Notes: generated by a model not told the origin, from the letters alone. A stretch of 43,286 bases of DNA from Gammaproteobacteria bacterium (GCA_013151575.1 JAADHZ010000073.1:1-43286); one strand, 5' to 3'. Shown: positions 5,960-43,048, numbered from the stretch's first letter. Numbers and translations are program-made.

Positions 5960-6030
5960 GAACAACACCGCAAATCAGATGCCAAATGGAGCGCCTCAAA
6001 ATGAGGGACGACTGTATTTGCTTGTTATAC
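5960..6030 (-). mobile_element. attC-like site (integron cassette recombination site), slightly degenerate
   Basis: Minus strand, 2 nt after the lipoprotein stop: GTATAAC aag CAAATACAG ... CTGATTTG cggt GTTGTTC. The L''/L' boxes pair with one bulged base. Confidence 0.65.
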
Positions 6031-6032
6031 TT

Positions 6033-6440
6033 TTACTCTATGTATTTGATAAATATCTCACCTGTATCTACCGTTTTCAAATGTCTACCAAATGAGCTGT
6101 GATCAAAATGAGATTCATACTCCATTATCACGCCATCCCTTTTGATTTCCTTTAATTTGTAGATTTTCCGAGAATGACGATAAGGAATACCAGTTAACTT
6201 GTCTCCTATTTTCAATTCGACACTTGTCTCACTAGTAATTTGACCGTCTGTTTTTAGTATAATTATCTGATCATTTATTTTTTTTAATACCTCAATATGT
6301 TCACCAAAATGGTTCTTAAACCATTCTTTTTCTTCATTGATTGTTTTTTTAATTGGGGAAGATTCCAATCTATTACATCCCCAAAAAAAAAACAAAATAG
6401 AAAAAAATGCGATTGCAAAAACACTTTTATTATTCATCAT
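6033..6440 (-). CDS. AT-rich hypothetical lipoprotein (putative gene cassette)
   Basis: MMNNKSVFAIAFFSILFFFWGC lipobox-like N-terminus; markedly lower GC than flanks; followed by an attC-like site. Confidence 0.7.
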   Translation of the reverse strand: MMNNKSVFAIAFFSILFFFWGCNRLESSPIKKTINEEKEWFKNHFGEHIEVLKKINDQIIILKTDGQITSETSVELKIGDKLTGIPYRHSRKIYKLKEIKRDGVIMEYESHFDHSSFGRHLKTVDTGEIFIKYIE

Positions 6441-6471
6441 TTTTTGAGTGTAGCCGTGTATTTGTCGCTTT

Positions 6472-7110
6472 TTAAGGCAGGTCCGCCATGCGATAGGTGG
6501 GGGCAATTTTTTCGGGGTCATCAATAGTGATGCCAAGGTCATTGATCAGCCCGTCCCGCAGGCCGTATACCCAGCCGTGCACGGCTAGCGGCTGCCCACG
6601 CAGCCAGGCATTTTGCACGATGGTGGTGTAGCACACGTTCGCGACCTGTTCGACGACGTTTAACTCACAGACCCGCTCCCGGCGGTGAGCTACGTCGTCG
6701 ATGCCGTCCACATCGAGCTGGTGTTTATAGTACACATCCTTGATATGCCGCAACCAATTGTCGATTAACCCATGCTGGCGATTTTCCATCGCCGCCTGCA
6801 CGCCGCCGCAGCCATAATGGCCACAGACGATGATGTGTTTGACCTTTAATATTTCCACCGCGTAGTGGATCACCGACAGACAATTCATGTCCGTGTGTAC
6901 CACCACATTGCCCACGTTGCGGTGTACGAACACCTCGCCGGGATCGAGGCCGATAATCTCGTTGGCTGGCACCCGGCTGTCCGCGCAGCCGATCCACAGA
7001 TAGTCGGGATTTTGCTGTGTGGACAGGCGTTGAAAATAATGTGGGTCGTCGGCTGTCTGACCGCTGGCCCAGCGCATGTTGTTTTCGAGCAGGTGTTGAA
7101 GTGGATGCAT
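6472..7110 (-). CDS. can: Beta-class carbonic anhydrase
   Basis: WIGCADSRVP, GEVFVHRNVGN and HIIVCGHYGCGG zinc motifs. Confidence 0.95.
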   Translation of the reverse strand: MHPLQHLLENNMRWASGQTADDPHYFQRLSTQQNPDYLWIGCADSRVPANEIIGLDPGEVFVHRNVGNVVVHTDMNCLSVIHYAVEILKVKHIIVCGHYGCGGVQAAMENRQHGLIDNWLRHIKDVYYKHQLDVDGIDDVAHRRERVCELNVVEQVANVCYTTIVQNAWLRGQPLAVHGWVYGLRDGLINDLGITIDDPEKIAPTYRMADLP

Positions 7111-7167
7111 GGTGTATTCGTCGCTTGCCTTTGGAAAGTAAGAAAAAATCGCCGCGCAGTCTGCGCC

Positions 7168-7779
7168 CTACCCCGTGGCATTTTCCAGCAATCGACGCAC
7201 CGGTGCAAAGCTGCGTCGATGGATGGGGGTAACCCCCAGCTCGACCAGCGCCGCGATGTGGGCCTTGGTGGGATAGCCTTTGTGTCTGGCCAGACCGTAA
7301 CCAGGGTAGTTTTTATCCAGCACCACCATCTCCCGGTCCCGCGCCACTTTAGCGATGATGGAGGCCGCGCTGATGGCAGGCACGCTGCCGTCGCCCTTGA
7401 TGATGGCCTCCGCGCTGCACGGCAGCTGCGGGCAGCGATTACCGTCCACCAGCACATGATTCGGCGCAATGCTCAGCCCAGCCACGGCTCGCTGCATGGC
7501 CAGCAGGGTGGCTTGCAGGATGTTCAGCTCGTCGATTTCTTCCACTTCGGCGCGTCCCAGCGACCAGGACAGGGCCGACTGTTTGATGATCGAAGCCAGG
7601 GATTCACGCCGTGCCTCTGACAGTTTTTTGCTGTCCGCCAAGCCGATGATGGGCCGACTGGGGTCCAGTATCACCGCGGCGGTGACCACTGGCCCGGCCA
7701 GCGGACCCCGTCCGACTTCGTCCACGCCGGCAACCAATGCCTGCGAGGCTGAAGGGCTGGGTTTGACTGGTTTATTCAT
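7168..7779 (-). CDS. rnhB: Ribonuclease HII
   Basis: [44 protein letters not shown]; start overlaps the lpxB stop. Confidence 0.97.
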
Positions 7780-8929
7780 GGGTATTTTTTTCCAGCAGGG
7801 CCAGTACGGCGTCCGCCGCCTGCTCGCTGGCGCCCAGGCGCAGTTGGCGATGAATCTCGTCGAAACGGCGGTGCACCTGCTCGGCGACCTCAGGGTTTTG
7901 CAGAAATTCCAGCACAGCAGCGCCCAGTTTTTCCGGGCTCGCATCGTGCTGAATGAGTTCCGGCACCAACGTTTCTCCTGCCAGCAGATTGGGCAGAGAG
8001 TAGTTGCTCACCCGCACCAGGCGTTTGACTAGCCAATAGCTCAGCGTGGCCAGACGGTAAGCTACCACCATCGGACGCTTGAGCAGCATGGCTTCCAGTG
8101 CGGCGGTGCCGGAGGCCAGTAACACTGCGTTGGCGGCGGCCATCACCTCTCGTGATTGCCCATCCACCAGCCGCAACTCAGGCGCATTGTCGATACGAGC
8201 CAGGGCCGCCTCGAACTGCTGGCGTCGCGCCGCATTGGCCAACGGCACCACCACCACCAACCCGGGCCGCCGCTCCCGCAACCAGCGCACGGTGTCGATG
8301 AACGTGTCGGCCAGATACTTCAGCTCGTTGGAACGGCTGCCGGGTAGTAGCGCCAGTATCTCGGCCTCCGCCGGCAACGACAAAGCCTGCCGGGCAGCGA
8401 TACGGTCCACCGTCAGAGGAATGCTGTCCGCCAGCGGGTGGCCCACGAAACGCACGGGGACATGGTGGCGCTGGTAGATGTCATTTTCGAACGGAAACAG
8501 GGTCAGCATCAGGTCGGTGGAACGGGCGATTTTTTTCACCCGGCCCTGTCGCCAGGCCCACACGGAGGGGCTCACGTAGTGCACCGTTTTGATGCCGACA
8601 TCCCGCAGCTGACGTTCCAGACCGAGAGTGAAATCCGGCGCGTCGATGCCAATGAAAACATCGGGAGGGTTATCTTTGAAGTGCTCCACCAACTGGCGAC
8701 GAATACCCAGCAATTCGCGATAACGCCCCAATACCTCGACAATGCCCATCACCGACAATCGGTCCATGGCAAACAAGGAACGAGCACCGGCTGCGATCAT
8801 TTCAGGGCCAGCGATGCCTTCGATCTGAGCCGTGGGATAGCGCTGGCGAATGGCATTGATGAGCCCAGCTCCCAGCAAATCGCCAGACGCCTCGCCCGCC
8901 ACGATGCCGATGCGCAGTGGCCCACCCAT
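7772..8929 (-). CDS. lpxB: Lipid-A-disaccharide synthase
   Basis: [46 protein letters not shown]. Confidence 0.97.
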
Positions 8930-8933
8930 GCGA

Positions 8934-9704
8934 CTAACGGATAATCCCTCTGCCGGACGCGCCGATGAACGCCAGCATCTGTGCCACTTCGGCGCTGTCC
9001 TGCGCCATGGCATTGAGTTTTTCCGAAGCTTGCTCCAGGGTAAGGCCTGAGCGATAGATCGTCTTGTAGGCCTTGCGTAGGGTGCTGAGGGTTTCGCGGT
9101 TGAATCCGCGCCGTTTGAGGCCTTCGCTGTTGAGCCCGTGGGGTTTAGCCATGTGGCCGGAGACCATGAGAAACGGTGGCACATCTTTGGAGATCACGCT
9201 GTTCATGGCCGTGAAGCTGTGCTCGCCAATTTTGCAAAACTGGTGCACTAGGGTAAAACCGCCGAGGATCACGCGGTCTTCCAGGGTGACGTGGCCAGCC
9301 AGGGTGGCGCTGTTGGCGAGGATGGTGTCATTGCCGATCCGGCAATCATGGGCGATGTGCACGTAAGCCATGATCCAGTTGTCATTGCCAATCCGTGTCA
9401 GCCCCTCGTCCTGCGTGGTGCCGCGACTGATGGTGCAGTACTCGCGGATCACATTGCGATCGCCGATTTCCAAGTGAGTCGGCTCATCGGCGTATTTTTT
9501 ATCCTGTGGGTCACCGCCCACGGAGGCAAAGGAATAAATTTTGTTGTCGCGGCCGATGCGCGCCGGGCCGTCAATGACCACGTGGGAGGCAATCACCGTA
9601 TCTGCCCCAATATCCACATTGGCCCCGATAACGGAAAACGGCCCCACGCTCACGCCATCGGCGAGTTTGGCGGAAGGATCAACAATGGCCTGAGGGTGAA
9701 TCAA
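8934..9704 (-). CDS. lpxA: UDP-N-acetylglucosamine acyltransferase
   Basis: Hexapeptide repeats, GGDPQDKKY, HIAHDC, LNSEGLKRRGF. Confidence 0.97.
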   Translation of the reverse strand: MIHPQAIVDPSAKLADGVSVGPFSVIGANVDIGADTVIASHVVIDGPARIGRDNKIYSFASVGGDPQDKKYADEPTHLEIGDRNVIREYCTISRGTTQDEGLTRIGNDNWIMAYVHIAHDCRIGNDTILANSATLAGHVTLEDRVILGGFTLVHQFCKIGEHSFTAMNSVISKDVPPFLMVSGHMAKPHGLNSEGLKRRGFNRETLSTLRKAYKTIYRSGLTLEQASEKLNAMAQDSAEVAQMLAFIGASGRGIIR

Positions 9705-9779
9705 TACGTGGATACCTCGACAAAATGGGCGTTCATGCTGACGCCAACGCGTAATACCGGAGAACCGTTGCGACCTGCG

Positions 9780-10253
9780 CTAGATGTTGACGCCACGCTC
9801 CGCACACATTAATTCGGCAGAACAGACGACTTTGTCATCCACCTTGGCGACGCCGTTAAACTTCCAAACACCGCGTTTCGATTTAATCACATCGACTTCA
9901 AGCACCAGTTGGTCACCGGGCACAACGGGCTGTTTAAAGCGCGCTTTGTCTATCCCCACGAGGTAGTACAACGAGTCATTGTCCGGCACTTTTCCGCTAG
10001 TGCGGAATGCCAGGATGCCCGTGGCCTGCGCCAGGGCTTCGAGAATCAACACCCCGGGCATCACCGGGCGATGCGGAAAATGCCCTTGAAAATAAGGCTC
10101 GTTGTAGGTGACGTTTTTGATCCCCACCAAACGCTCGCCCACATTGCATTCAAGCACGCGATCAATCAGCAAAAATGGGTAGCGGTGCGGCAGGTGTTCG
10201 AGAACTTCAAAGATATCAAGTGTATCTAACTGTGTATCCAAAATTGATCTCAT
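9780..10253 (-). CDS. fabZ: 3-hydroxyacyl-ACP dehydratase
   Basis: [32 protein letters not shown]. Confidence 0.97.
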
Positions 10254-10419
10254 TTATTTTGTGTGGTTTTGAAAATCGGCCCGAACCCATGTATCGACCA
10301 CATACATCTCAAAAAGTGCGGACAACCGGCCGGGCATTTCCCGCCCCCTTGGAATCTTCAGCGAGGGTAATCCCTTAGGATCGTTATTTTTGTGCATCCA
10401 GCGGTGTTGAACCGCCTTC

Positions 10420-11445
10420 CTAGTCTTCTTTCGTTTCCTGCAAACGGCTTTCCAGCCGACCCAGTCGCCGGGCCATATCGTCCAGCTGCTTCATTCGCAC
10501 ATAATTTTTGCGCCACTGGGCATTTTTTTCCAGCGGTGTCCCAGAGGAGAAAACACCCGATTCGGTAATGGATTTGGCCACATGGGACATGCCCGTAATG
10601 GTGACATTATCCGCGATCTCGAGATGGCCCACAATGCCCACAGCGCCGCCGATGGCACAGTGGGCTCCGATACGCGCACTACCGGCGATGGCGGAACACG
10701 CGGCGACGGCGGTGTGAGCCCCGATGCGCACGTTGTGGCCAATCTGGACGAGGTTGTCGAGTTTAACGCCGTCACCAATAATGGTGTCTTCCAGGGCCCC
10801 ACGATCCACGGTGGTGTTGGCCCCGATGTCAACATCATCACCAATCACCACTTGCCCTACTTGCGGCACCTTCAGCCAGCGTCCCTGGTCCTTGGCGAGA
10901 CCGAAGCCGTCCGCACCGATCACCACGCCGGGATGCAGAATCACCCGGGCGCCGATCCTGCATCCGTGACTAATGGTGACATTGGCCAGCAGCCGGGTGT
11001 CGGCGCCGATCACCGCATTGACGCCGATGACGCAACCCGGACCAATATCACACCCCGCAGCCAACACCGCACCGGCCTCCACGACACATTGCGGCCCTAC
11101 CCGGGCCTCTGAATGTACTTGGCTCTGCTCGTGGATGACCGCGGAAGGATGTACGCCGGGTTCAGATACCGGCGCAGGATACAGCCAAGCGGCAACCTGT
11201 GCATAAGCCGCATGAGGATTGCTCACCACCAAGCCGTTGGTGCGCAGATACGGCAAATCTTTTTCTGCGAGTATGACCGCAGAAGCGTTAACACCGGCGA
11301 GCTTGCGGCATAAGCGGGGGTTGGCAAGGAAAGTGATATCCCCTGCTCCGGCATCAACCAAGCTGGCGACTTTTGACACCACGTAGTCGCCATCACCCAC
11401 AACACGGGCATCAAGCCTTTTTGCCAGTGCCCGCAGAGTGAACAT
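10420..11445 (-). CDS. lpxD: UDP-3-O-acylglucosamine N-acyltransferase
   Basis: [38 protein letters not shown]. Confidence 0.97.
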
Positions 11446-11459
11446 AGCGTGCCCGGTTT

Positions 11460-12011
11460 TTATTTTTTGGCGCCCTGGTTAAATTCCTGCTTAAGACGCC
11501 CCAGCACTTGATCGGAGATATCAACACGGTCGCTGGAGTACACCACTCCGTCACTCAGCACAAGATCGTAATTCTGTTTTTTGGCAATATCGCTGATCAC
11601 TTCGAACACCCGGCGGCGTAATTTATCGAAGGCCTCGTTACGGCGAATATTCAGATCTTCGCGAAATTCATCCTGGCCGCGTTTCAATTCCCGCTTGCGG
11701 GAAATAATATCGCGCTCCAGTTTACGACGCTCCGACTCGCTCATAATGGCACCATCACGGGTGAGTTTGTCTTCCAGATCACGCATGTCCTTTTGGCTGG
11801 CCACTAGCTTTTTATCGCGCGGTGAAAATTCTTTCTCCAAACGGTCACGTGCAGCCTCCGCCTGTGGGGCTTCTTCCAACACCCGTGGCGCGTTGACGAA
11901 ACCGATTTTAAACTCCGCCGCATCCACAGCCAGCGTGTAAACGCTCAGCAGTAAACCCAGGCTAACGGCCCGCCAGCAACCTTTTGATTTTTTGTGAACA
12001 GTGTCACTCAC
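11460..12011 (-). CDS. skp: OmpH/Skp periplasmic chaperone
   Basis: Signal peptide, KIGFVN, coiled coil, YDLVL...DIS; lies between bamA and lpxD. Confidence 0.93.
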
Positions 12012-12174
12012 TGCACTTACCTCTAATTGTTTAGTTTTTAGGTCAACATGTTGATTCAGCTACGCACCTAACCATGGCAAAAACCCGGCTGGGCAACACC
12101 ACATCTCTCACCATTTTGGGCGAGGCGAGTCGCTAATGATGCCACGAATCCGAGCATGACCCAAACATGTAAAA

Positions 12175-14517: not shown

Positions 14518-14530
14518 AACTTTCCCCTAC

Positions 14531-14590
14531 TGATGAGTATATTGATCAGGCGACACAAGCAACCGACTATTGACCCGAGACAAGGCGGGC
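14531..14590 (+). repeat. Partial copy of MITE B overlapping the rseP 3' end
   Basis: 49/60 ungapped identity to 1667-1726, counted by hand. Confidence 0.8.
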
Positions 14591-23294: not shown

Positions 23295-25949
23295 ATGAAT
23301 ACCTGCCCCACCTCCGACTGGCTTGAATTTGACCGTTCCCTGGCGCAAACCCAACAGCCATTGGCGCTATTTCGCGCGCAACTCAAATCGGCCAAGGAAT
23401 CGCTGAAGAAACGATTTGACGCCAACGCGCCGGTACACGAACTGGTAACCGAACGCGCGACCGAAGTTGACCAACTCCTGATCCGCGCCTGGCAGCGCCA
23501 GTTCGACCGTGATGACACCCGCATCGCACTGGTGGCCGTAGGGGGTTACGGACGCGGAGAGCTGCACCCCGCCTCCGACGTGGACCTGCTGATCCTCGCC
23601 GCGACGCAGGAAGACATCACCCGCCACGCCGAACACATCGAACAATTCCTGCTATTTCTGTGGGACATGGGACTGGAAGTGGGGCACAGCACCCGCAGCT
23701 TGAATGACTGCGTAGAACAGGCGAAAGCCGATATCACCGTAGTCACCAACCTGATGGAGGCACGACTGCTGGTCGGCCCGTCCGCCCTGTTCCACGAAAT
23801 GAAATCAGCCGTGGGCCCAAACAACATCTGGCCGGGTCTGGATTTTTTCCGCGCCAAACGAGAAGAACAGGTCGCCCGTCACCACCGTTTCCACGACACC
23901 GCCTACAACCTTGAACCCAACATCAAGGAAAACCCAGGCGGGCTGCGCGATCTGCAAATCATCGGCTGGGTGGTCAAGCGCCACTTTGGTGCCGAAACCC
24001 TGCGCGAGCTGGTGGACCACCATTTCCTCACCGAGCACGAATATTGCGCGCTGATGGAGGCGCAGGATTTTTTGTGGCGCATTCGCTTCGGCCTGCACAG
24101 CATCACCGGACGGCGAGAAGACCGCCTGCTGTTCGACCACCAGCGCACCCTGGCCACCCAGTTTGGTTACGAAGATTCCGACAACAAGCTGGCGGTAGAA
24201 CAGTTCATGAAAGACTACTACCGCACCGTGCTGGAGCTGTCCCGGCTCAACGAAATGCTGCTCAACTTGTTTGAGGAAAAAATTCTTTTCGCCGGGGAAA
24301 CCGAACCCCCAGTGACGATTAACACACGCTTCCAGTCACGCCGCGGCGTGCTGGAAGCGCGCCACAACAAGATATTCCTGCGCGAGCCCTGGGCGCTGCT
24401 GGAGGTCTTTTTGCTGATGGCCCGCGATCCGCAGCTGCGTGCCGTGCGCGCCGACACCATTCGACTGATACGCGACCACCGCTACCTTATTGACGCGGAA
24501 TTCCGCCGCACCCCGCGCTGCCACGAACTGTTCGTCGAACTATTTCGGCAGGGCACAGGGCTGACCCACGAACTGCGCCGCATGAACCGTTACGGGGTAT
24601 TGGCTGCTTACGTCCCCCTGTTTGGCGACATCGTCGGGCAAATGCAGCACGACCTGTTTCATGTGTACACCGTGGACGAGCACACCATGTTTGTGGTGCG
24701 TAACCTGCGCCGCTTCACAGTGCCGGAATTCGCCCACGAATTCCCGTTATGCAGCCGCACCATCCATCGCATTGAACAACAGGAAGTGCTCACCCTGGCA
24801 GGGTTTTTTCATGATATCGGCAAAGGTCGCGGAGGCAACCATTCCCAGTTAGGCGCAGTGGACGCCGTCAATTTTTGCCGCGAACACGAAATCAATGAAC
24901 ACAACACCCACATCATCAAATGGCTGGTGGAAAATCACCTGCTCATGTCCACCACCGCGCAGCGAAAGGACATCAGCGACCCCGATGTGATCGCCGAATT
25001 CTCCCAGCGCGTGGGCAACCAAAAACGCCTGAATCATCTCTACCTGCTCACCGTAGCGGACATCCGCGCCACCAGCCCCAGCCTGTGGAATTCCTGGAAA
25101 GACGCCCTGCTCGCCGAGCTATTTCACGCCACCAGTCGCGCCCTGCGACGTGGCCTCGAAAAACCGGCAGACCATCGAGGGCTGGTGGAAGAAATACAGG
25201 ACACCAGCCTGGCCGAGCTGAAAAAACTCGGCATGGATCCCGCCACAGTGCAGACCCACTGGCGGCGACTGAAACCCGACTATTTCCTGCGCCATTCGGC
25301 GAATGAAGTGGTCGCACAGACGCGTAACATACTCAGCATCAAGGACAACTCAAACCCGCTGGTCACGGTGCGCAGCGATACGCCACGCGGTGGCAGCGAA
25401 ATATTCGTGTACATGCGCGACGATCATCAACTGTTCGCCACCATCACGTCGGCGCTGGAACGAATGGGGCTCAACATCACCGATGCCCGGATAATCACGT
25501 CCGCAGACCACTTTGCACTCGATACTTTTCTGGTATTGGAAAAAACCGGCGAGGCTATTGCCGATCCCGCGCGGCGGGAGGAAGTCAAACTCGGCCTGAC
25601 CAATGCCCTCAAAACACCGGGAGATGCGCCCTCCCCCAACGTGCGACTGACACGCCAGCAAAAATATTTTCCCATTGAAACCCGGGTATTGTTTCGCGAA
25701 GATGCCAACAACCATCGCACCGAAATGGAAGTTATCAGCAGTGACCGACCGGGGCTGTTGGCGCGTATCGCCAAGGGCCTGGTGGAATGCGACATTCGGT
25801 TGCAAAACGCCAAAATCGCCACCTTCGGCGAACGCGCGGAAGACATCTTTTTTCTCACAAACAACGACGATCAACCCATTTCCACCGCCCAGCAACACGA
25901 CCTGCGCGAGACTCTTATCGGTCTGCTGGACGATAAACCTCAGCAATAA
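23295..25949 (+). CDS. glnD: [Protein-PII] uridylyltransferase / uridylyl-removing enzyme
   Basis: AVGGYGRGELHPASDVD, IKENPGGLRD, HVYTVDEH, HDIGKGRGG, two ACT domains. Confidence 0.98.
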   Translation: MNTCPTSDWLEFDRSLAQTQQPLALFRAQLKSAKESLKKRFDANAPVHELVTERATEVDQLLIRAWQRQFDRDDTRIALVAVGGYGRGELHPASDVDLLILAATQEDITRHAEHIEQFLLFLWDMGLEVGHSTRSLNDCVEQAKADITVVTNLMEARLLVGPSALFHEMKSAVGPNNIWPGLDFFRAKREEQVARHHRFHDTAYNLEPNIKENPGGLRDLQIIGWVVKRHFGAETLRELVDHHFLTEHEYCALMEAQDFLWRIRFGLHSITGRREDRLLFDHQRTLATQFGYEDSDNKLAVEQFMKDYYRTVLELSRLNEMLLNLFEEKILFAGETEPPVTINTRFQSRRGVLEARHNKIFLREPWALLEVFLLMARDPQLRAVRADTIRLIRDHRYLIDAEFRRTPRCHELFVELFRQGTGLTHELRRMNRYGVLAAYVPLFGDIVGQMQHDLFHVYTVDEHTMFVVRNLRRFTVPEFAHEFPLCSRTIHRIEQQEVLTLAGFFHDIGKGRGGNHSQLGAVDAVNFCREHEINEHNTHIIKWLVENHLLMSTTAQRKDISDPDVIAEFSQRVGNQKRLNHLYLLTVADIRATSPSLWNSWKDALLAELFHATSRALRRGLEKPADHRGLVEEIQDTSLAELKKLGMDPATVQTHWRRLKPDYFLRHSANEVVAQTRNILSIKDNSNPLVTVRSDTPRGGSEIFVYMRDDHQLFATITSALERMGLNITDARIITSADHFALDTFLVLEKTGEAIADPARREEVKLGLTNALKTPGDAPSPNVRLTRQQKYFPIETRVLFREDANNHRTEMEVISSDRPGLLARIAKGLVECDIRLQNAKIATFGERAEDIFFLTNNDDQPISTAQQHDLRETLIGLLDDKPQQ

Positions 25950-26012
25950 CCAGATTTTTAGAGCGACGTTTAAGCTGTGCGGGGAGCCTGTCGGGTTTAG
26001 GATGTATCTACT

Positions 26013-26051
26013 GCGGAAAGATGTCCGTATTTATCGCTTTTGCTATGTTTC
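26013..26051 (-). mobile_element. Degenerate attC left arm
   Basis: Minus strand GAAACATAGC AAAA GCGATAAATACGGACATCTTTCCGC overlapping the stop codon; same layout as the left arm of the intact attC at 42938 (ATATAAC AAGG TTGATCAACACGGATTATTTTCAGC). Confidence 0.5.
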
Positions 26052-27014
26052 AATTGTTAATTCTGGCCATAATTCAAGCCACTTCTTACTTGATACCCTA
26101 TCTTGAAATGCATTTTTTGATGTACATTTTGGGTTTCGAGTGGCCGCCAACCTAATAACGTCACAAGCGGAAAAGGGTGACCCAATACTAACTACACCTT
26201 CCTTCGTAAGCGTAACGCCGATTGCTGTCTGTATTTCTGGCCAATATGACATTGCTTCGATGCAGCCATTGTATGAATCATGGCCATGTTTCAATGACAT
26301 TCGAGCTTGGTTTTTTACAGACCAATGACAGTTTGGCATAGACTTAACCAATTCATTTTCTATTTCAACGTCCCGATCAGGTGAAGTATTTGAAGTGTCA
26401 AAATATATTAGATCAATATCATTGAGTGGCGTTACCTCTTTATATCCTTGCAATTTATCCCAAATCAAATTTCTTACAAACCCTGCTGACAGATACCACT
26501 CATCATTCATAACCGCCTCAGAGATTTTCAAACATTCGAGCCTGAATTTATCATCTGATATCCATCGGCTGATTATCTCAAACGACTTGAATTTAGCCCC
26601 AACCAAGGAAACAGAACCCTCGATAAACTCCAGCGCATTGCCATCGGGGTCACGACAAAACACTGCCCGTCGCCCCGAACGACTGCGAGTGAATTCCACA
26701 CCAGCGGCCTCCAGTGAGGCCGTCAGCACATCCAGCTCGTCAACACTGAACGCCACGTGCCGGTCCCGGCCGCCGTGCGATGAGTGGTTTGATACGGGAT
26801 CGGGGCTAGGCAACTCCAGCAGATGAATCTGCTGCCGCCCCACCTGTAGCCAGGCACCGGGAAAACCCAGTGCCGGGCGCTGCGGATCCAGCTCCAGACC
26901 CAGCACGTTCCGGTAAAAAAGCAAGCTGCGAGCAGTATCTGCCACCAGCAGGCTGGCGTGAACGATTTCGTTGATAGTGGCCATCATGACTTTCCCGTTA
27001 TTGTCGTGGAACAC
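26043..27014 (-). CDS. Fusion ORF: VOC/glyoxalase domain + DUF925-like (NTP_transf_6) nucleotidyltransferase
   Basis: N-half HASLLV..FY..VLGL...GRDRHVAF...RDPDGNALE (GC-rich); C-half WYLSAGFVRNLIWD..DIDLIYFD..WSVKNQARM..WPE (AT-rich). Real start may be at MMATI (~26987). Confidence 0.8.
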   Translation of the reverse strand: MFHDNNGKVMMATINEIVHASLLVADTARSLLFYRNVLGLELDPQRPALGFPGAWLQVGRQQIHLLELPSPDPVSNHSSHGGRDRHVAFSVDELDVLTASLEAAGVEFTRSRSGRRAVFCRDPDGNALEFIEGSVSLVGAKFKSFEIISRWISDDKFRLECLKISEAVMNDEWYLSAGFVRNLIWDKLQGYKEVTPLNDIDLIYFDTSNTSPDRDVEIENELVKSMPNCHWSVKNQARMSLKHGHDSYNGCIEAMSYWPEIQTAIGVTLTKEGVVSIGSPFSACDVIRLAATRNPKCTSKNAFQDRVSSKKWLELWPELTIET

Positions 27015-27552
27015 ACGTTAACAGATCGTGAAAAAATCAGCTGCGGCGCATTGCGAGCATCCACACCACCGCTGCGGAATTCCAGCAATTCGAGTGATAC
27101 AACACACCTCTCCACGTTGAATGAAAAACAAAATAGCGAATGGTACCGAAATACTCATCCATCATTGTCTTCCTATCTTGCCAAATCCGCTGGCAACCAC
27201 GTGGAAAAATTCAATACAAAGAGAAAGGACAACCATAAAAACATATTGCGTCGTCTAAAAACAAAATCATTATATTTGAAAATATGTAGAAATTTCCTAA
27301 AGCCTGAGTTTTTCAGGCCGCATAACGCAACCATGAATTGAGAAACCAGCATGTGAATATTTTTGTTGCACAATTCAAATTGTGCGGTATCGCTCCCCTT
27401 GCTGACACCAAAACCAGGACAGCAAACGCATTAACAAGGGAGCTCGACTCCCATCCAACATTTATTTCCAAATCGGTTTATCGAAATATGGCCGTGCGTT
27501 TACGAAATAGAGAGATTTAATGATGCGCGTATCCAACCCTCCCCCGAATAGC

Positions 27553-34056: not shown

Positions 34057-34115
34057 CCGCCGCCACCCGCAAAACAGCACCTTCACCAACATCACCTTCA
34101 GACCCGACAAACACC

Positions 34116-34757: not shown

Positions 34758-34790
34758 ACCAGTGAGGTCATCTCCGCTGGCGGCCGGTTT

Positions 34791-34813
34791 GTTTTCGCTG
34801 TGTTTAGCGGAAA
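34791..34813. terminator. Possible bidirectional terminator between convergent hflD and cysS
   Basis: TTTTCGCTG-tgtt-TAGCGGAAAA imperfect stem. Confidence 0.35.
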
Positions 34814-34860
34814 ATGACAACGGCACAATCGCGTGCCTTGCGCCTTGGCATGAGAGATGA

Positions 34861-36327
34861 TTATTCCCGACGCCAGTCTGTCGTGCCGTCAGGCCGGTCT
34901 TCCAGCACGATTCCCTGCTCTGCTAGCTCATCGCGGATGCGGTCGGACTCGGTCCAGTTTTTGTTGGCGCGGGCTTTTAGACGCTCGGCGATTAATACTT
35001 CTATTGTATCCTCTGATATCCCTGTGCTTTCAGCTGCTTGAACAGAACTAAAACCAGAGAGACTGGCGTCGCCCGCCTGAAATCCCCCAGCACCTCGAAT
35101 AACAGGCCTTCCCTTTAAAAAGGCGTCAGGTTCCCGCTCCAATAGCCCGAGATAACCCGCCAGGCATTTCAGCTTTGCACCCAACTGTGCTGCCAACGGC
35201 GTATCACAGCAACGCTGGCAATTGGCTTCTCGCGCCAGCTCGAACAACACCGCAATGGCCTCCGGGGTATTAAAGTCATCATCCATGGCGGCGATGAAAC
35301 GTTGCACATATGCATTGTCTTCAACGATCTCGGAGACATCCAGCCCCCGCAACGCCGTGTACAACGTCGTCAACGCCGCCTTGGCCTCATCCAGGTGTTT
35401 GTCGGAATAATTCAGCGGGCTGCGGTAATGGCTGTTTAATATAAAAAAGCGAAGCACTTCCGGGTCATATTTTTTCAGCACTTCACGAATCGTAAAAAAA
35501 TTGCCTAGCGACTTGGACATTTTTTCTTCGTCTACGCGCACAAAACCGTTGTGCATCCACACGTTGACGAACTTCTCGCCGGTGGCCGCCTCGCTCTGCG
35601 CGATCTCGTTTTCGTGATGGGGAAATTGTAAATCCAGCCCGCCACCGTGGATGTCGAAGTGGTTGCCCAGGCAGCCCACGGACATGGCCGAGCATTCGAT
35701 GTGCCAGCCGGGACGGCCATCGCCCCAGGGTGAGGGCCAGGATGTGCCCTCTTCGAGCTTGGCCATTTTCCACAGCACGAAGTCCAGTGGATCGTCTTTG
35801 GCTGCCACCACCTCGACTCTGCTGCCTGCACGCAGGTCGTCGGTGTTTTTGCCGGAGAGTTTGCCGTAACCGTCGAAGCTGGAGACGTCGTAATACACAT
35901 CTCCATTTGTCCCTTGGTAAGCGTGCTCCTTGTCCACCAAGATCTGAATCATGGCGATAATCTCATCCATGTGCGTGGTGGCACGTGGTTCTTCGTCCGG
36001 TCGTCGCACGCCCAAAACTTCAGCGTCCCGATTCATTTCTGTGATGAAACGGTTGGTCAACGCCTCAATAGACTCACCGTTTTCATTGGCGCGGGCAATA
36101 ATTTTGTCGTCTACATCGGTGATATTGCGAATGTAGGTAACCTGTCTGTCGCCAAATACCTTGCGCAAATACCGGTTCACCACGTCAAACACCACCAGCA
36201 CCCGCGCATGGCCGATGTGGCAATAGTCGTACACCGTCATGCCGCACACGTACAGGCGCACATTTTCAGGGTCGATGGGCGTGAAGAGTTCTTTTCGTTT
36301 AGTCAGATTGTTGTGAATGTGCAGCAT
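34861..36327 (-). CDS. cysS: Cysteine--tRNA ligase
   Basis: [42 protein letters not shown]; start MLHIHN. Confidence 0.98.
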
Positions 36328-36546
36328 GGTTTTCAGTCTCTGATGCCCCGGGCGGGGGCGTGCGATATCGGTGCGCGTGCTTAATGCGGCAAAGGGCGGG
36401 AATAGTAGCGAAATCAGGGGGTGACTACAAAAAACCCATGAAAACCGCTCGCCATCCGATGCTTTCTCCCGTCCCTCAAACCCTTTATCATTGGCCGCCA
36501 TCAACGCAAGCCACAACGACCTTACCCGAAACAAGGAACTTATTGC

Positions 36547-37167
36547 ATGACCACCATGAAACGACTCGCCCTGATCTGCGCCTTTTTTGTCCTGCCCCTG
36601 GCCACGTTCAGCGCCAGCGCCGACGACAACGCCCCGCGCGTACGCCTGAGCACCAACCTCGGTGACATCGTGCTGGAGCTGAACGCCGCCAAGGCCCCCA
36701 AATCAGTGGACAATTTCCTGATCTACGTTAATGAAGGCTATTATGACGGCACTATTTTTCACCGGGTCATCGATGGTTTCATGGCTCAGGCGGGCGGCTT
36801 CACCGAAGATTTTCAGAAAAAAAACACCCACGCCCCGATCCAGAACGAAGCCGATAACGGCCTGAAAAACCTCACCGGCACCGTCGCCATGGCGCGTACA
36901 AATTCCCCCCACTCCGCCACCGCCCAGTTTTTTATCAACGTGGCGAACAACGGCCGTCTCGACCACCGCTCACCCACCTCTCGCGGCTGGGGTTATGCCG
37001 TATTCGGCAAAGTGGTTGAAGGCATGGATGTGGTGGAAAAAATCCGTCACACACCCACCGGCAGCGGCGGCCCATTTCGCACGGATGTCCCGCGCAGCCC
37101 GATTGTGATCCAACGGGCCACGGTGGTTGGCGCAGCGGTTGCACCCGGCATGAACGACATAAAATAA
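36547..37167 (+). CDS. ppiA: Periplasmic cyclophilin-type PPIase
   Basis: Signal peptide, [33 protein letters not shown]. Confidence 0.9.
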
Positions 37168-37236
37168 CCGACGGCACCTGCCACCGTCAGACCATAACGC
37201 TCCATCAATTTACAATTTATACTCAAGGAAAACGCC

Positions 37237-37737
37237 ATGATCCGCATGCAAACCACACTGGGAACCCTCGACATCGAACTGGATTTCGACAACGCTCCTA
37301 ACAGCGCCGCCAATTTTGAACAGTACGTGAAAGAAGGCCACTACGACGGCACCATCTTTCACCGCATCATCAAGGGCTTTATGGTGCAGGGTGGCGGCAT
37401 GCTGCCGGACATGAGCCAAAAACCCACCCGTGATTCCATCAAAAACGAAGCCGACAACGGCCTGAAAAACCTCGCCGGCACCTTGTCCATGGCCCGTACC
37501 AACGACCCGCACTCCGCGACCTCACAGTTTTTCATCAGCGTGGTGGACAACGCTTTCCTGGACTTCACCTCTCCCACACCGCAGGGCTGGGGCTACTGCG
37601 TGTTCGGCAAGGTGGTCAATGGCCTGGACGTACTGGACAAAATGAAAGAGGCCGCTACCGGTTCGCGTTCTGGCCATACGGACGTGCCGCTGGAAGACAT
37701 CCTGATCGAAAAAGCCGAGGTGGTCGACGCCGACTAA
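37237..37737 (+). CDS. ppiB: Cytoplasmic cyclophilin-type PPIase
   Basis: No signal peptide; FHRIIKGFMVQGGG, QGWGYCVFGKV; upstream of lpxH. Confidence 0.92.
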   Translation: MIRMQTTLGTLDIELDFDNAPNSAANFEQYVKEGHYDGTIFHRIIKGFMVQGGGMLPDMSQKPTRDSIKNEADNGLKNLAGTLSMARTNDPHSATSQFFISVVDNAFLDFTSPTPQGWGYCVFGKVVNGLDVLDKMKEAATGSRSGHTDVPLEDILIEKAEVVDAD

Positions 37738-37777
37738 TAACCTGTTGCCACAGGTTTTATCTACACAACCGTCGACC

Positions 37778-38494
37778 GTGACTACCTTTTTTGTCGCCGA
37801 CCTCCACCTCTCGGGGGAGCGGCTGCAGACCATCGAACTGTTCCAGCAATTTCTGCTGGAACAGTCTCCCCATGCCGAGGTTCTGTACATCCTCGGCGAC
37901 CTGTTCGAGGCCTGGCTGGGTGATGATGCCGTGCTGCCTGACATGGTTCCGGTCGTCAATGCACTGAAAACCTTTACCGACAGTGGCGTACCGGTGTTCG
38001 TGATGCACGGCAACCGCGATTTTCTGTTAAGCGAGCAATTCGAAAAACTCACAGGCTGCACGCTGCTAGCGGAACCCGCAATCATCGACCTGTATGGCAC
38101 CCCCACCCTGCTGCTGCACGGCGACACCCTGTGTACCGACGATGTGGCATATCAAAAACTGCGCGCCGTGGTGCGCAGCCCGGAATGGAAAGCCGGGGTG
38201 CTGAAAAAACCCATCGAAGAACGTATTGAAATGGCAAGTCAGGCCCGTGCGCAAAGCCAGGCACACACACGGGAAAAATCAGAAAAAATCATGGATGTGA
38301 ACGCGCAAGCGGTGGAAGCCGCTTTTCGCGAACACCGGGTGGAGCGGTTAATACACGGCCATACTCATCGTCCCACAGTGCATGAGTTGACTATCGACGG
38401 CCACCCTGTCACCCGCATCGTGTTGGGTGATTGGAGTGACCAGACCAGCGTGTTGAGAGTCGATGAAAAGGGGCTGGATTCCGAAGGGCTGTGA
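37778..38494 (+). CDS. lpxH: UDP-2,3-diacylglucosamine hydrolase
   Basis: FVADLHL, YILGDLFEAWLGDD, HGNRDF, HGDTLCTDD, IHGHTHRP, LGDW; start GTG 37778 or TTG 37745. Confidence 0.96.
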   Translation: MTTFFVADLHLSGERLQTIELFQQFLLEQSPHAEVLYILGDLFEAWLGDDAVLPDMVPVVNALKTFTDSGVPVFVMHGNRDFLLSEQFEKLTGCTLLAEPAIIDLYGTPTLLLHGDTLCTDDVAYQKLRAVVRSPEWKAGVLKKPIEERIEMASQARAQSQAHTREKSEKIMDVNAQAVEAAFREHRVERLIHGHTHRPTVHELTIDGHPVTRIVLGDWSDQTSVLRVDEKGLDSEGL

Positions 38495-38596
38495 ATCAGT
38501 AGCACTGACACATAAAAAACACGAAAAAAACATCACCCCTCATCCGGGCACAACATGACCAATGCCTCAAACGTTTCCAGCGAAACATATTTTTGA

Positions 38597-39457
38597 TTAC
38601 TTCTCGGGCAGCTCATCCCCCACCGAGTAACGCTGAAAATCCTTAGGCAACTCGATGATACCGCCTGCCACTACGACCCCCACATGATAGTCTTTTAGAA
38701 AACGCTGGTACCCGTTGCGACCCCACTCGCGAATGGGCAATCCCTTCTCCATGTAATCGGTGGCGTGAAACACATTCATGGACAGGTCGCAGGCATTTTG
38801 CATGTCGATGGGCGTAGCATTCACCGTAGTGGCATGCTCCCCCGCCAGCACCTGCCGGAAATCACGCATTGCTGCCAGTACGTCTTCCATGAAACCTTCG
38901 CCGATGGTCACCGAATCGTAACAATGTTCGCCGTTGGCGTAGAAACGATAATGAGTGGCCTGACGGCCGTCAATCTTCGGAATAGCGTTGGAGGGCTGGG
39001 ACTCAGCTGTGAAGGTCAGCTCGAAAGGCGGCTTAGCGGTCACGGGCTTAGGCTGAACAACGAAAATGGTTTCGTCTTCACCATTGACGTTGTAGATGGT
39101 GCGCTCATCCCGGTTAAACAGAACATAATCCGCAGGCGAACGTGTATCCGACATTTGCATGTATTTAGCGTTGACAAAAATACGCGTAATAAACCCCGGA
39201 GCACCGGCTTCTTTTTCCGAGTAGACCAGCAGAGTACCTGCGGTCTCTTTTTCCGCGTCGGTCAATTCTTGTTCCGCGCCGGCGATGGCCCGCGCAGTGG
39301 CATCCTCTTTCGCCTGCGCCTTCACTTCTTCCGCTTGTGTTTTCACTCCTTCCGCACTGGGTTGGGTGGCGCAACCTGACAGACCGGCAACCAGCACCGT
39401 CGCTATTACTGCCACTGTCGTCAACGAGCCCATCACATTCCGGTTTTGTTTGGTCAT
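38597..39457 (-). CDS. Hypothetical lipoprotein
   Basis: Start overlaps the DUF455 stop (ATGA); lipobox LSGC after a hydrophobic stretch. Confidence 0.75.
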   Translation of the reverse strand: MTKQNRNVMGSLTTVAVIATVLVAGLSGCATQPSAEGVKTQAEEVKAQAKEDATARAIAGAEQELTDAEKETAGTLLVYSEKEAGAPGFITRIFVNAKYMQMSDTRSPADYVLFNRDERTIYNVNGEDETIFVVQPKPVTAKPPFELTFTAESQPSNAIPKIDGRQATHYRFYANGEHCYDSVTIGEGFMEDVLAAMRDFRQVLAGEHATTVNATPIDMQNACDLSMNVFHATDYMEKGLPIREWGRNGYQRFLKDYHVGVVVAGGIIELPKDFQRYSVGDELPEK

Positions 39458-40260
39458 TCGTTTAATCCTTCCAAATAATTTAATTCGTTTTCGCTGAATC
39501 CCGCCGCCAACCTCGCATCGCGATGCAGCGGGCCTTTTGAGCGGCGGCCTGAAGACCCCATGTATTGATCGAAAAGCCGTCGGAAAGTTTCCTCTTGCGG
39601 CAGTGCGCGTTGGTCGCACAAATAATGGAACCAACGGCTACCAATTTCCACGTGCCCTACCTCGTCGCGCAAGATAATGTCCAGCACCACATTGGCGGCA
39701 TGGTCGCCGATGCCGGACAAGCGCGCCATTATACCCGGTGTTACATCCAGCCCGCGCGCCTCCAATACGCGCGGCACCAAAGCCATGCGCTCCAACGGGT
39801 CGTGGGCGGTTTTTCGCGCCATTTCCCAGAGGCCGTTGTGGGCATCGAAATCGCCATAATCGTAGCCGAGGCTGTTGAGGTGATCCCGCATTAACTGAAA
39901 ATGGTAGGCCTCTTCATCGGCCACTTTCACCCAATCGGTATAAAATTCGTCGGGCATGTCGCGAAAACGGTAGACCGCGTCCCAGGCCAGGTTGATGGCG
40001 TTGAATTCGATGTGGGCGATGGCATGAATCAGTGCCGCATGGCCTTCGGGGCTACCCAGGCCACGGGTGTGTAATTCGCGCGGCGCCACCAGCATCGGCC
40101 GTTCCGGTCTCCCCGGTTCGCCTATAACCTGCGGCTCACCGTCACGCAGTAACGGAATATCGCCGTCACGCCACTGTTGGGCCATGATACGAGTCTCACA
40201 GGCCTTCTGGCCAGCGTCCGACAGGGTGAGGCAGTGGGCGGCGACGGCAAAGAGATTCAC
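39454..40260 (-). CDS. Ferritin-like domain protein (DUF455)
   Basis: HAIAHIEFNAINLAWDA.YRF, DEEAYHF, VPRVLEARGLD, DEVGHV.IG.RWF; GTG 40260 is the probable start. Confidence 0.9.
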   Translation of the reverse strand: MNLFAVAAHCLTLSDAGQKACETRIMAQQWRDGDIPLLRDGEPQVIGEPGRPERPMLVAPRELHTRGLGSPEGHAALIHAIAHIEFNAINLAWDAVYRFRDMPDEFYTDWVKVADEEAYHFQLMRDHLNSLGYDYGDFDAHNGLWEMARKTAHDPLERMALVPRVLEARGLDVTPGIMARLSGIGDHAANVVLDIILRDEVGHVEIGSRWFHYLCDQRALPQEETFRRLFDQYMGSSGRRSKGPLHRDARLAAGFSENELNYLEGLNE

Positions 40261-40336
40261 GGTTGGGGTACTTTTAAGAATAAGGCCGGAGGAATATCGG
40301 CTGGGCCTCGCATTATCCGGCCCCACCACACCCGGG

Positions 40337-40480
40337 TCAAACCGGCGTTATCGGAAGTGCGCCAGCGGTACCGGCAGGCGTTTTGTCCCCTTGCAGATCG
40401 GCATCGGTAAGATTTGCACTACGCAGGTCAACACCTCGCAAAATCGCATAAGTCATGTTGGTGTTGTGCAGATTGCCCCA
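40337..40480 (-). pseudogene. Pentapeptide-repeat gene fragment
   Basis: Manual translation GNLHN-TNMTY-AILRG-VDLRS-ANLTD-ADLQG; in-frame stop just upstream and no start codon ahead of the repeats. Confidence 0.6.
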
Positions 40481-40796
40481 TCCGCAAGTTTTGTTTCACC
40501 TTATTCGAATATGCAGTAAGTTTGAGCATATGGTATGAAATAGTGGAAATAACGCACCAAATCGTGCATTTCAGTCAACCGGTTTTTCTCTGAATGTTGA
40601 GTTGATAGGGTTGGATGAAAAAATAATAGGTCGGATATGCCTTGATAGTCCATTAATATCAGGATATCAGGGCAAATTGCCCGGTTCTTCATTCAATACG
40701 GTGGGTAGCAAGGCAAATGGACCTGATACTAATAAGTTAGATTTTCTTAGGTTCCATAGAAGTATCCGAAGGTAGTTGAAATATGTATAAGATATT

Positions 40797-41641
40797 ATGA
40801 TTGTCACTCCCATCAATCCGTTAGCACGCTATATTTCACACTATATGGTGACAAAGATTGCACAAGATCACAAGATCAAGCAACCTATTTGTCGGCAACA
40901 TCTACACCAACGCTTGTGATATTTAGGCGAGGAAATGTATCATTTTGCCATAGGAATTTGCGGATGGAGCAGTCTCCGTCCGCTTATATTGAAGGCCCCT
41001 TTCTTTATCCTCGTTATTCATATGCCAATATGAACACGGAAGTCATCTCCGTTCATTTTAGGCCCGCTATGCTGGAGCAGATTATCTCTGTTCCTGTGTC
41101 AGAGCTTTCCAATTATTGTATACCGTTATCAGATTTTTCATGCTCACAGTTAGCCTTGCTAACAGAAGATGTTATGAATGCACCCTGCGTTAATGCGGCA
41201 ATTAAGTTAATAGAACTACGAATCATGAGATTACTGACTTCACAGAATATACAGCGACGTAGGAAGGCAAAGCCACTTTGGATCAATAGTAAATTAATCA
41301 ACCAGACTGCTAAAGAATTAGCTGCTACTTCGGGCTTAAGTATCCGCCAACTAGAAAGGCGGTTCATGGCAAGTTATGGTGTAACGATTAGGGATTGGCG
41401 ACGCTTAGATAGAGCTACTAAAGCTATAACTTTGTTAGCTATGCCTTCAACCAATCTCGATATCACAACAGTTGCTTATAATGCTAATTATTTCGATCAT
41501 TCCCACATGTGTCGAGATTTCCGGAAACTCTGTGGTGTTTCCCCTCAGGAATTTAGCCGCCGCCTGAATTATGATCCAGCGTACTGGCCAATTCGTGAGT
41601 TTAGAAAATTATTGTCCCTAAATGTCGCATCCGTACAATAG
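40797..41641 (+). pseudogene. AraC-family regulator, frameshifted near the 5' end
   Basis: C-terminal HTH (GLSIRQLERRF...YFDHSHMCRDFRKLCGVSP); the N-terminus MIVTPINPLARYISHY is out of frame because of CACAAGAT x2 at 40861-40876. Confidence 0.8.
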
Positions 41642-41699
41642 AAAACAGACCCTATAATAGGATAATTTTGGCTTTCCACATGATCCTTAAAGAGGGCTT

Positions 41700-42932
41700 A
41701 TGAAAATTACGGTTATTACTTATGGTACCGAAGGTGATAATAGACCATTAGTCGCATTGTGTCGTGGTCTACAAAATTCTGGACACGACATATTATTTTT
41801 GGGTGAACGTTCAATTGAGGGGTTAGCCACTCGTTCGGCTATTCCTTTTCAGGCTCTTGAAGGCGATATGAAAGCAACCGTTCAGCCAGGAGGCCCATTA
41901 CATCGGCTTATGAACGAAAAAACACACCCTGGAGTAATGGCTAAGGCCTGTGCGAATTTCGCTACTGAAAACACTAAATCATGGATGAAATCTTTGCTAT
42001 CGGCAGCTCAAGATAGCGATGGGATAATTTTTTCGGGGTTTGCGGGATACACCGCCCTATCAGTTGCTGAATATCTAAATAAGCCTGTCATTGGTGCTGG
42101 GCTATTCCCTGTATCACCGACTAAAGAATTTCCATCTTCGCTTATCCCGTCGGTTTCTCTTCCTGGCTGGCTCAATTATTATTCCCATAAAGTGATGATG
42201 AGTGTTTTGTGGCACCTTTTTCGCCGCTCCATAAATGAAGCAAGAAAAGAAATTTGCAACCAACCTGCACGCTGGACAGCATGGTCTGACTATCCCATCG
42301 TCTATGGAATTTCTCCCAGTTTGCTTCCCCAGCCACAAGATTGGCCCGACAAGTGGAAAATGTGTGGCGCGTGGTATCAAGCTGATAGCTTATGGTCCCC
42401 CAGTCAGGAGTTGGTAGCTTTTATAAATGCAGGAGAACCGCCCATTTATGTCGGGTTTGGGAGCATGTCTGGTTTTGATTCTAAAAGACTATTAAATATT
42501 TTTTCACCTGTCCTGGCTGGACGGCGAGTGATCTATGCCCCGGGCTGGAGTGAATATGATGCATCATTGTTGCCAGTAGAAAGCCTCATCGTAGACAATA
42601 TTCCTCACGACTGGTTGTTTCCTCGCGTTTCGTTAGTTATACATCACGGTGGAGCGGGAACTAGTCATGCTGCAGCCATCGCTGGGACACCATCTGTCGT
42701 GATTCCTTTTGCAGGGGATCAGTTTTTTTGGGCTCATCGCTTAACTCAACTTGGTGTAGCTCCGAAGTCGAGTTCGTTGATGAAAGTTAATGCGACTATA
42801 TTCAAAAAAATGTTAGAGGCTGCGAGTAGTCAAGTAATGATAGAAAACTCGCGTGCATTGGCACAGCGCATGAAATCCGAGGACGGAGTTGGGGATGCTG
42901 TGCAACATGTCGAGAGATTTATCCGACAGTAA
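41700..42932 (+). CDS. GT-B / GT1 UDP-glycosyltransferase (sterol glucosyltransferase-like)
   Basis: ITYGTEGD.RP, PIYVGFGSM, PHDWLFPR...HHGGAGT, PFAGDQFFWA. Confidence 0.9.
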   Translation: MKITVITYGTEGDNRPLVALCRGLQNSGHDILFLGERSIEGLATRSAIPFQALEGDMKATVQPGGPLHRLMNEKTHPGVMAKACANFATENTKSWMKSLLSAAQDSDGIIFSGFAGYTALSVAEYLNKPVIGAGLFPVSPTKEFPSSLIPSVSLPGWLNYYSHKVMMSVLWHLFRRSINEARKEICNQPARWTAWSDYPIVYGISPSLLPQPQDWPDKWKMCGAWYQADSLWSPSQELVAFINAGEPPIYVGFGSMSGFDSKRLLNIFSPVLAGRRVIYAPGWSEYDASLLPVESLIVDNIPHDWLFPRVSLVIHHGGAGTSHAAAIAGTPSVVIPFAGDQFFWAHRLTQLGVAPKSSSLMKVNATIFKKMLEAASSQVMIENSRALAQRMKSEDGVGDAVQHVERFIRQ

Positions 42933-42937
42933 AAAAA

Positions 42938-43048
42938 ATATAACAAGGTTGATCAACACGGATTATTTTCAGCTTTGTTTGGCTGTGCTAAAAAAGCCTA
43001 GCACAGCCAAACAAAGCTGAAAATATCCGGTTATCAACGACGTTAGAG
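42938..43048 (+). mobile_element. attC site (111 bp)
   Basis: R'' ATATAAC; L boxes GTTGATcAACaCGGA / TCCGGTTATCAAC with two bulged bases; perfect 27-bp stem 42964-42990 / 42999-43025; R' GTTAGAG. Confidence 0.9.

Follow-up and report, generated by a model that had tools for sequence, protein, structure and literature searches.

In this work, we analysed a contig of a gammaproteobacterial metagenome-assembled genome (MAG) in which three AT-rich inserts lie in core chromosomal DNA. The window, that is the whole contig C162 of 43,286 bp, belongs to genome G000 (2.48 Mb in 173 contigs, 85.6% complete, GC content 0.546); here G numbers denote genomes and C numbers contigs, and G009 is a genome of the same genus. 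The three inserts are quite probably integron gene cassettes at rest in two ways, insert 3 in a decayed integron and inserts 1 and 2 as lone cassettes, known as single attC sites lacking integron-integrase (SALINs). The cassette of insert 3 probably entered by ordinary attC × attI recombination, and a group II intron in sense orientation is inserted after the GTTA of the R' box of its attC. Inserts 1 and 2 were most likely placed by the integrase IntI via attC × attG recombination (5'-G↓WT-3', the arrow marking the crossover) while the lineage had a working integrase. Insert 2 has since been immobilised, its attC losing core and hairpin and point changes removing the start codon of its gene and the stop before it. 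A preliminary description of this DNA had already reported the three inserts; they coincide with sharp GC dips (table) between flanks of 0.53-0.60, the window as a whole having a GC of 0.538, and the coordinates given there were right to a few bases.

Insert 2 is a proven cassette, now stranded alone. In a DNA search, window positions 25936-26626 aligned with G009:C40:54633-55317 at 83% identity over 691 nt. In G009 the counterpart is a free-standing gene coding for an NTP_transf_6 protein of 181 aa; it has an ATG of its own with an in-frame TAA ahead of this codon. It sits in an array of four attCs, flanked by its own attC and by that of the cassette before it (ending in ...GGCG↓TTATGT). The homology stops at both G↓TT crossover points. 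On the minus strand the unit of the window runs from G↓TTCTGT (26617 to 26616) to ...GCTGAGG↓TT (25938 to 25937), and its start, G↓TTCTGT, is homologous to the G↓TTATGT of the G009 array. The cassette start matches the complement of its own R'' at five of seven positions in the window and at all seven in G009.

By sequence the attC of insert 2 belongs to the attCs, but as a relic and not as a working site. It is decayed, as the preliminary description had it, but is not the half-site described there, for both arms are present and are homologous to those of the G009 attC. The R'' core has mutated from AAC to AGC and no hairpin is left, neither strand folding better than its shuffles (z +0.7 and +1.4). 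The centre of the site is replaced by a 37-nt end of a miniature inverted-repeat transposable element (MITE), which is 89% identical to the copies on C10 and C45. The MITE measures about 195 bp, its terminal inverted repeats start with CTAGGAGTCTGTCGG, and copies are present in G000 at C10:23780-23970, C45:28290-28480 and C141:6100-6284 and are numerous in the genus genomes (e.g. at least 9 places in G008). A solo MITE end also lies near a tRNA on C51. The 37-nt repeat was also considered as the end of an insertion sequence (IS), and this was rejected because the C10 copy has no adjacent transposase and the copies are MITEs of about 195 bp. The MITE end joins the attC exactly at the loop CTAG, and its inner 11 bases are common to the arm of the C6-variant attC. 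This abutment and the shared bases suggest that the MITE inserted at the CTAG of the attC loop, and that most of it and one attC arm may then have been deleted between short repeats.

The most interesting details of the locus are an in-frame fusion of this cassette to a host gene and an attC-derived stop codon of glnD. Where the G009 cassette has TAA-ATG the window now has AAA-TTC, so both the start codon and the stop before it are lost, while at the junction the host gene of the Glyoxalase/VOC family is without its original tail and stop and stands in the same frame as the cassette gene. The resulting frame is open, and both of its Pfam domains are full length (E 2e-16 for Glyoxalase/VOC and 8e-50 for NTP_transf_6). 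As the separate start codon is gone, the NTP_transf_6 domain can be made only as a C-terminal extension of the VOC protein. Its coding sequence is intact, with a dN/dS of 0.13 against the G009 copy (180 codons), and no significant rate acceleration was found in the cassette domain (unique changes of 14 v 8, 12 v 5, 9 v 11 and 9 v 9 with four outgroups). At columns invariant in five homologues, the window domain has changed at 3 of 99 and the G009 copy at 2 of 98. The intact frame of 323 codons, the few changes at invariant columns, the low dN/dS and the loss of any unfused form would be consistent with a selected, functional two-domain protein rather than a by-product of decay. On the other hand, among the best 120 of 511 homologues only one, the window's own protein, has VOC and NTP_transf_6 together, the dN/dS is an average over all the time that has passed since the split of the two copies, so that it cannot date the fusion, and a recent accident would look identical. 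We therefore regard a functional fusion as possible but doubtful. Upstream of the VOC gene, at 27015-27520, there is a 500-nt AT-rich non-coding stretch (GC about 0.42).

At the opposite junction of insert 2, glnD, which is convergent, takes its last three codons and its stop (25938-25949) from the other strand of the attC's 3' arm. GlnD ends in ...LLEK, ...LLDK or ...LLDN in relatives and in ...LLDDKPQQ in the window. The host flanks of insert 2, when joined directly, hold no stop codon in either convergent gene. A 7-nt TTTATCG found at both junctions is native coding sequence of both host genes; it was rejected as a target-site duplication or transposition footprint, since flanks joined there give no stop in either gene.

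Insert 3 is the first cassette of a chromosomal integron that has degenerated. When 39400-43060 was searched as DNA, window 40529-40739 aligned at 75-76% identity with C29:597-823 and C134:14913-15168, and each of these two matches lies directly upstream of an intI pseudogene fragment detected with TIGR02249. The sequences of the three G000 platforms run together as far as ...TAATAAG↓TT and part immediately beyond this point. Moreover, window 40665-40740 matches sequence directly upstream of co-oriented attC arrays in G002:C95, G002:C99, G002:C2 and G004:C100, and a further match lies 156 nt from intI in G005:C379. The homology beside intI and arrays, together with the divergence at G↓TT, places the left edge of insert 3 at an attI, and the region before it can be taken as a genuine attI on these alignments. 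The adjoining remnant on the minus strand reads like the N-terminus of IntI (R..HY..I....TY) and then breaks off; it is too short to be detected with intact IntI from G010, which gave no significant tblastn match to the window at 40529-40605. Thus the statement of the preliminary description that the stretch holds no integrase is not upheld. At 40340-40530 (minus strand), in place of the deleted part of intI, the sequence reads as a fragment of a pentapeptide-repeat protein, 68 nt of which (40394-40461) recur at 94% near the end of C133 (C133:33162-33229). On the other two platforms (C29:1-3600 and C134:14545-16042) an intI pseudogene with stops and the same attI are followed by AT-rich DNA. 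C29 begins with a short-period repeat.

The attC sites were scored with two models of our own, attC being absent from Rfam as a family; at the gathering threshold Rfam gave in the window only the group II intron (43082-43286) and a t44 RNA. Model R1 was built from four clear attCs of the G009 array and the 42938 site of the window, and the genus-specific model R2 from 41 best-strand sites, the sites of inserts 1 and 2 standing outside its training set. The attC of insert 3, whose R2 score is high by construction, folds at -40 kcal/mol (z -11 to -14, with 0 of 200 shuffles equally stable) and is 90% identical to an attC in G009:C4, which confirms the intact site that had been described there. 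The start of the insert, G↓TTAGAT (40736 to 40737), matches the complement of its own R'' at six of seven positions. GTT-like cores had been proposed upstream of all three inserts, and at inserts 2 and 3 a G↓TT stands at the junction. The R2 scan of the window, run with filters off, found no attC relic between the two genes of insert 3, and these genes were not found in 30 relatives by DNA search. No R2 attC was obtained on the C29 and C134 platforms at E values up to 5.

The attC of insert 3 adjoins a group II intron, which is sense to the cassette genes and on the attC top strand. By comparison of ten copies the intron starts at 43046 (G[A/T]GCGCC), and in seven of the ten it is preceded by the four exon bases GTTA. 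In insert 3 the attC hairpin (42938-43045) is intact and R' is interrupted after GTTA, three bases past the IntI cut site. The R2-scored attC ends at the intron start in 4 of 10 aligned copies, and three more were added by coordinate comparison (the copies include L097, L100 and L102). The attC-intron junction, scanned for as an exact pattern in metagenome_contigs, had 0 matches there. The rest of the window intron is not assembled in G000, where a search with the G011 copy matched nothing else. Because the contig ends inside the intron, it cannot be told whether the array of insert 3 continues. Contig C115 was rejected as a continuation of the window, as there is no overlap and C115 matches a different Rfam D1-D4 family. 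The group II intron on C115 (within C115:1-4600) is a different one, present as its 3' part, with domain V/VI at 1809-1884 and no intact frame for a reverse transcriptase. Behind it come 2.6 kb of AT-rich DNA that contain an AT3-SGNH acyltransferase, a fragment resembling a transposase and a masked N run.

Insert 1 is probably a lone cassette. Its open reading frame (ORF) has the same orientation as the carbonic anhydrase gene (6472-7110) and begins 31 nt past the stop of that gene; the encoded protein gave no Pfam match. The putative attC, 71 nt long, has an R'' of GTATAAC, L''/L' pairing with one bulged base and an R' of GTTGTTC, and it lies on the correct strand, starting 3 nt past the ORF's stop. 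It folds at -9.1 and -9.7 kcal/mol (z -2.0 and -2.2), 5 and 13 of 200 shuffles folding equally well. By our own estimate, the chance of an R2 match at exactly that spot and strand is about 1e-4 (from an E value of 0.51 over 86.6 kb), and the site is credible because of this exact placement after the ORF stop on the right strand. The attC that the preliminary description had assigned to insert 1 is a weak one.

Some of the evidence weighs against this reading of the three inserts, beginning with insert 1. The R2 match of its attC is non-significant by itself. Its upstream core, GCTACAC (6448-6454), matches at 5 of 7 positions with GCT instead of GTT, and we estimate that a 5/7 match is expected by chance about once per two tries in a 60-base region, so that the core proposed for this insert is only at chance level. 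No relatives of its protein were found in 31 family genomes, genome_contigs, metagenome_contigs or the ESM Atlas (best score 0.76), and therefore there is no second copy to prove mobility. At insert 2, host DNA with both stop codons must have been lost between the junctions, which a single attC × attG event does not explain. The two-gene content of insert 3, including a regulator, is unusual for a cassette. More generally, R2 E-values are rough, relatives are only 70-78% identical with spacers that vary, and in a MAG of this completeness and contig number an intact intI or a long array could be unassembled. Around insert 1 the flanking spacer is variable and the relatives are too divergent to define an empty site.

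The points on insert 1 would also be expected if it were no cassette at all, but an orphan gene acquired horizontally and followed by a hairpin that arose by chance (z about -2), all the more since no homologue is found in any array and the spot between dnaE and can takes unrelated insertions in relatives (e.g. an inverted-repeat element in G008). Such a coincidence is unlikely in view of the R2 match lying exactly at the ORF stop codon on the right strand. The attC also has the R'' motif of the family, TATAACAAG, in common with the insert 3 attC at 9 of 9 positions, and a bulged L box, and in size, single promoterless ORF and AT-richness the insert is like the other solitary cassettes of the genome. 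We prefer to consider insert 1 a probable lone cassette. At 5555-5920 (plus strand) the window also holds a secreted-looking ORF of 121 aa with host-like GC, for which neither Pfam nor a DNA search of 30 relatives gave a match.

With R2, no other attC came up within 17 kb of either insert 1 or insert 2, and homology to attI in the window is limited to 40529-40739, with none at the left junctions of these two inserts. Inserts 1 and 2 thus have what defines a SALIN, a lone attC with no att site or intI nearby, and insert 3 does not. All window matches to R2 other than those in the table were below 11 bits. The hairpin at 39055-39095 has attC-like outer boxes (GAACAAC ... GTTGTAG) and a fold z of -3.25. 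It lies within an ORF of 345 aa (38597-39634) to which no Pfam family is assigned. As an attC it would be too short, and the match is probably due to chance. The possibility, named in the preliminary description, that only the 42938 site would score as attC and would simply be the first unit of an array comes close for insert 3, which opens a decayed integron.

Beyond the window, R2 found at least five more solitary attCs in G000 (on C87, C144, C6, C150 and C142, 29.6-49.8 bits), each at a short AT-rich patch and with no second site within 2-3 kb. A further attC (24.6 bits) is on C33, in a stretch (9159-11938) that also contains a fragment of intI, transposase fragments as IS debris, and a toxin-antitoxin cassette. 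The C33 intI fragment covers the IntI-specific insertion region, and the RHH/RelE-like toxin-antitoxin cassette is at the contig end. An intact intI (TIGR02249 above 265 bits) was not found in G000, the best fragment reaching 98 bits with stops, and three more intI pseudogene pieces are carried outside the window. In the genus, attCs were found by R1 in 13 of 14 genomes and intI above the family cut-off in 11 of 14. G009 has three intact intI copies and several broken ones; its GC is lower and more uneven, so that host and cassette DNA were not cleanly separable across the 10 loci surveyed there, and 5 of these 10, first seen as single attCs, hold further, weaker attCs.

Among the solitary sites, an ORF co-oriented with the attC is present at inserts 1 and 2 and on C6 (behind trpC), C87 and C150. 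All five, a small number, have a co-oriented host gene whose end lies within about 40 nt upstream of the cassette ORF. The observation that two of the window inserts stand behind co-oriented host genes, carbonic anhydrase for insert 1 and VOC for insert 2, was correct. The behind-gene pattern of solitary cassettes is suggestive, and it is expected from selection alone. On the minus strand, no promoter-like or terminator-like site was seen between host gene and cassette ORF at inserts 1 and 2; the scans found such sites in the same numbers as in shuffles and were used only for this absence. Given the co-oriented host genes and no such site in between, the promoterless cassette genes of inserts 1 and 2 would be transcribed by read-through from the host gene.

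The preliminary description had gone further and proposed a new, integrase-independent system of scattered cassettes, which actively seeds cassettes behind genes and fixes them by attC decay. Several solitary attCs on different contigs of G000, the five-of-five placement behind host genes, one decayed attC and one fused gene would agree with it, and inserts 1 and 2 do stand alone, away from attI. We nevertheless consider such a system very improbable. Insert 3 is not a scattered cassette, but lies at a true attI beside an intI remnant, and the intI pseudogenes of G000 and the intI genes in the genus do not fit a lineage that is integrase-less by design. Insertion at attG sites giving SALINs has already been described (bioRxiv 10.1101/2022.09.11.507474). 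Decay is expected of any unused site. What could be read as adaptive fixation is equally explained by neutral decay once IntI had been lost. The orientation and distance pattern, with its n of 5 and no control, is expected from selection alone.

A second alternative is that inserts 1 and 2 are leftovers of a larger array, or of a group of clustered attC sites without an integron-integrase (CALIN), broken up by rearrangements. G000 is rich in decayed integron pieces (C29, C134 and C33), MITEs and IS fragments, and half of the apparent single-attC loci surveyed in G009 proved to hold more attCs. On the other hand, inserts 1 and 2 lie between conserved housekeeping genes (dnaE/can and glnD/VOC), the coding parts of which reach right up to the cassette edges, with no attI-like sequence at the left junctions and no second attC within 17 kb, and we regard this origin as improbable. 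The placement of both inserts as single cassettes by IntI remains the preferred reading. A more far-reaching idea is that lone cassettes are kept here mainly if they land a few bases past the stop of a co-oriented housekeeping gene, where they can then be absorbed, and that the NTP_transf_6 domain of insert 2 is a working C-terminal domain of the VOC protein. We consider this speculative and rather unlikely; if true, it would mean that integrons feed protein domain architecture as well as operons.

The remainder of the window is core chromosome, with dnaE, the beta-carbonic anhydrase gene can, rnhB, lpxB/A/D, fabZ, ompH, bamA, rseP, dxr, cdsA, uppS, frr, pyrH, tsf, rpsB, map, glnD, two chemoreceptor genes, mnmA, hflD, cysS and two cyclophilin genes.

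Table. Position, strand and main properties of the features of the window (positions counted from its first nucleotide).
Feature	Position	Strand	Remarks
Insert 1	5966-about 6454	-	489 bp, GC 0.319; left (5') edge uncertain
Putative attC of insert 1	5960-6030	-	R2 14.0 bits, E 0.51
ORF of insert 1	6036-6440	-	135 aa, signal-peptide or lipoprotein-like N-terminus
Insert 2	25938-26616	-	679 bp, GC 0.401; carries NTP_transf_6 (PF06042) gene
Decayed attC of insert 2	25932-26048	-	R2 20.7 bits, E 0.011; best window match outside the training site; both arms kept, centre replaced
MITE right terminal inverted repeat piece	25983-26019	-	37 nt
Fusion ORF	26043-27014	-	323 codons; host Glyoxalase/VOC residues 17-130, then NTP_transf_6 residues 171-321
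Hairpin inside ORF	39055-39095	+	41 nt; R2 14.6 bits, E 0.37
intI remnant	40529-40605	-	about the first 25 codons, remainder deleted
attI region	40606-40736	+	crossover G(40736)↓TT(40737)
Insert 3	40737-43042	+	2306 bp, GC 0.430
AraC-family regulator gene, insert 3	40889-41641	+
GT1-type glycosyltransferase gene, insert 3	41700-42932	+
attC of insert 3	42938-43048	+	R2 108.4 bits, E 1.3e-24; training-set member
Group II intron, 5' part	43046-43286	+	Rfam RF02005, 80 bits; cut by the contig end

The locus offers a natural example of the fate of cassettes after integrase loss. One site shows the decay of a platform, with intI truncated and the attC hit by an intron, and two show lone cassettes stranded in core operons, one of them with a MITE-destroyed attC and a host fusion. 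As field data from a genus in which nearly all genomes carry attCs, it lends support to the attG/SALIN route already published, and insert 2 is a concrete candidate for cassette-to-host gene fusion.

By comparison with known introns, the window intron is like the group IIC-attC introns in lying immediately after the attC hairpin and in having a short conserved exon motif before it, as these are described in PMC3001079. The motif is GTTA in the window and TTGT/T in the IIC-attC introns, and unlike these, which lie on the bottom strand and antisense to the cassettes, the window intron is on the top strand and sense (PMC3001079). In its orientation it resembles the introns placed just past an attC that PMC7923331 mentions, namely a single Enterobacter cloacae case and the IIB1 intron UHB.I2.

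In bioRxiv 10.1101/2022.09.11.507474, SALINs, insertion into attG (5'-GWT-3') and expression from a resident promoter were shown experimentally, and the insertion bias reported there consists only of GWT and an avoidance of essential genes. With no other insertion bias reported in that work, a pattern behind stop codons in nature would reflect selection. Inserts 1 and 2 are like SALINs in having one ORF and one attC each with no attI or intI nearby, in their junctions at G↓TT, which for insert 1 are putative, and in the adjoining resident gene, whose promoter could drive them. Unlike SALINs, insert 2 has a decayed attC with a MITE fragment and a cassette gene translationally fused to a host gene, and both genes flanking it have lost their own stops, beyond what a single insertion explains. 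Insert 3 is like a degenerate chromosomal integron or CALIN (IntegronFinder classes) in having attI, cassette, attC and an inactivated intI. In contrast to such an integron, it shows one attC before the contig end, and its intI of about 25 codons is undetected at the protein level; of the parts of a complete integron, attI is present by homology and an intact intI is lacking. The decayed integrons of the Xanthomonas type are a parallel to insert 3. Thus the locus adds a member to a known kind, and is not a new system.

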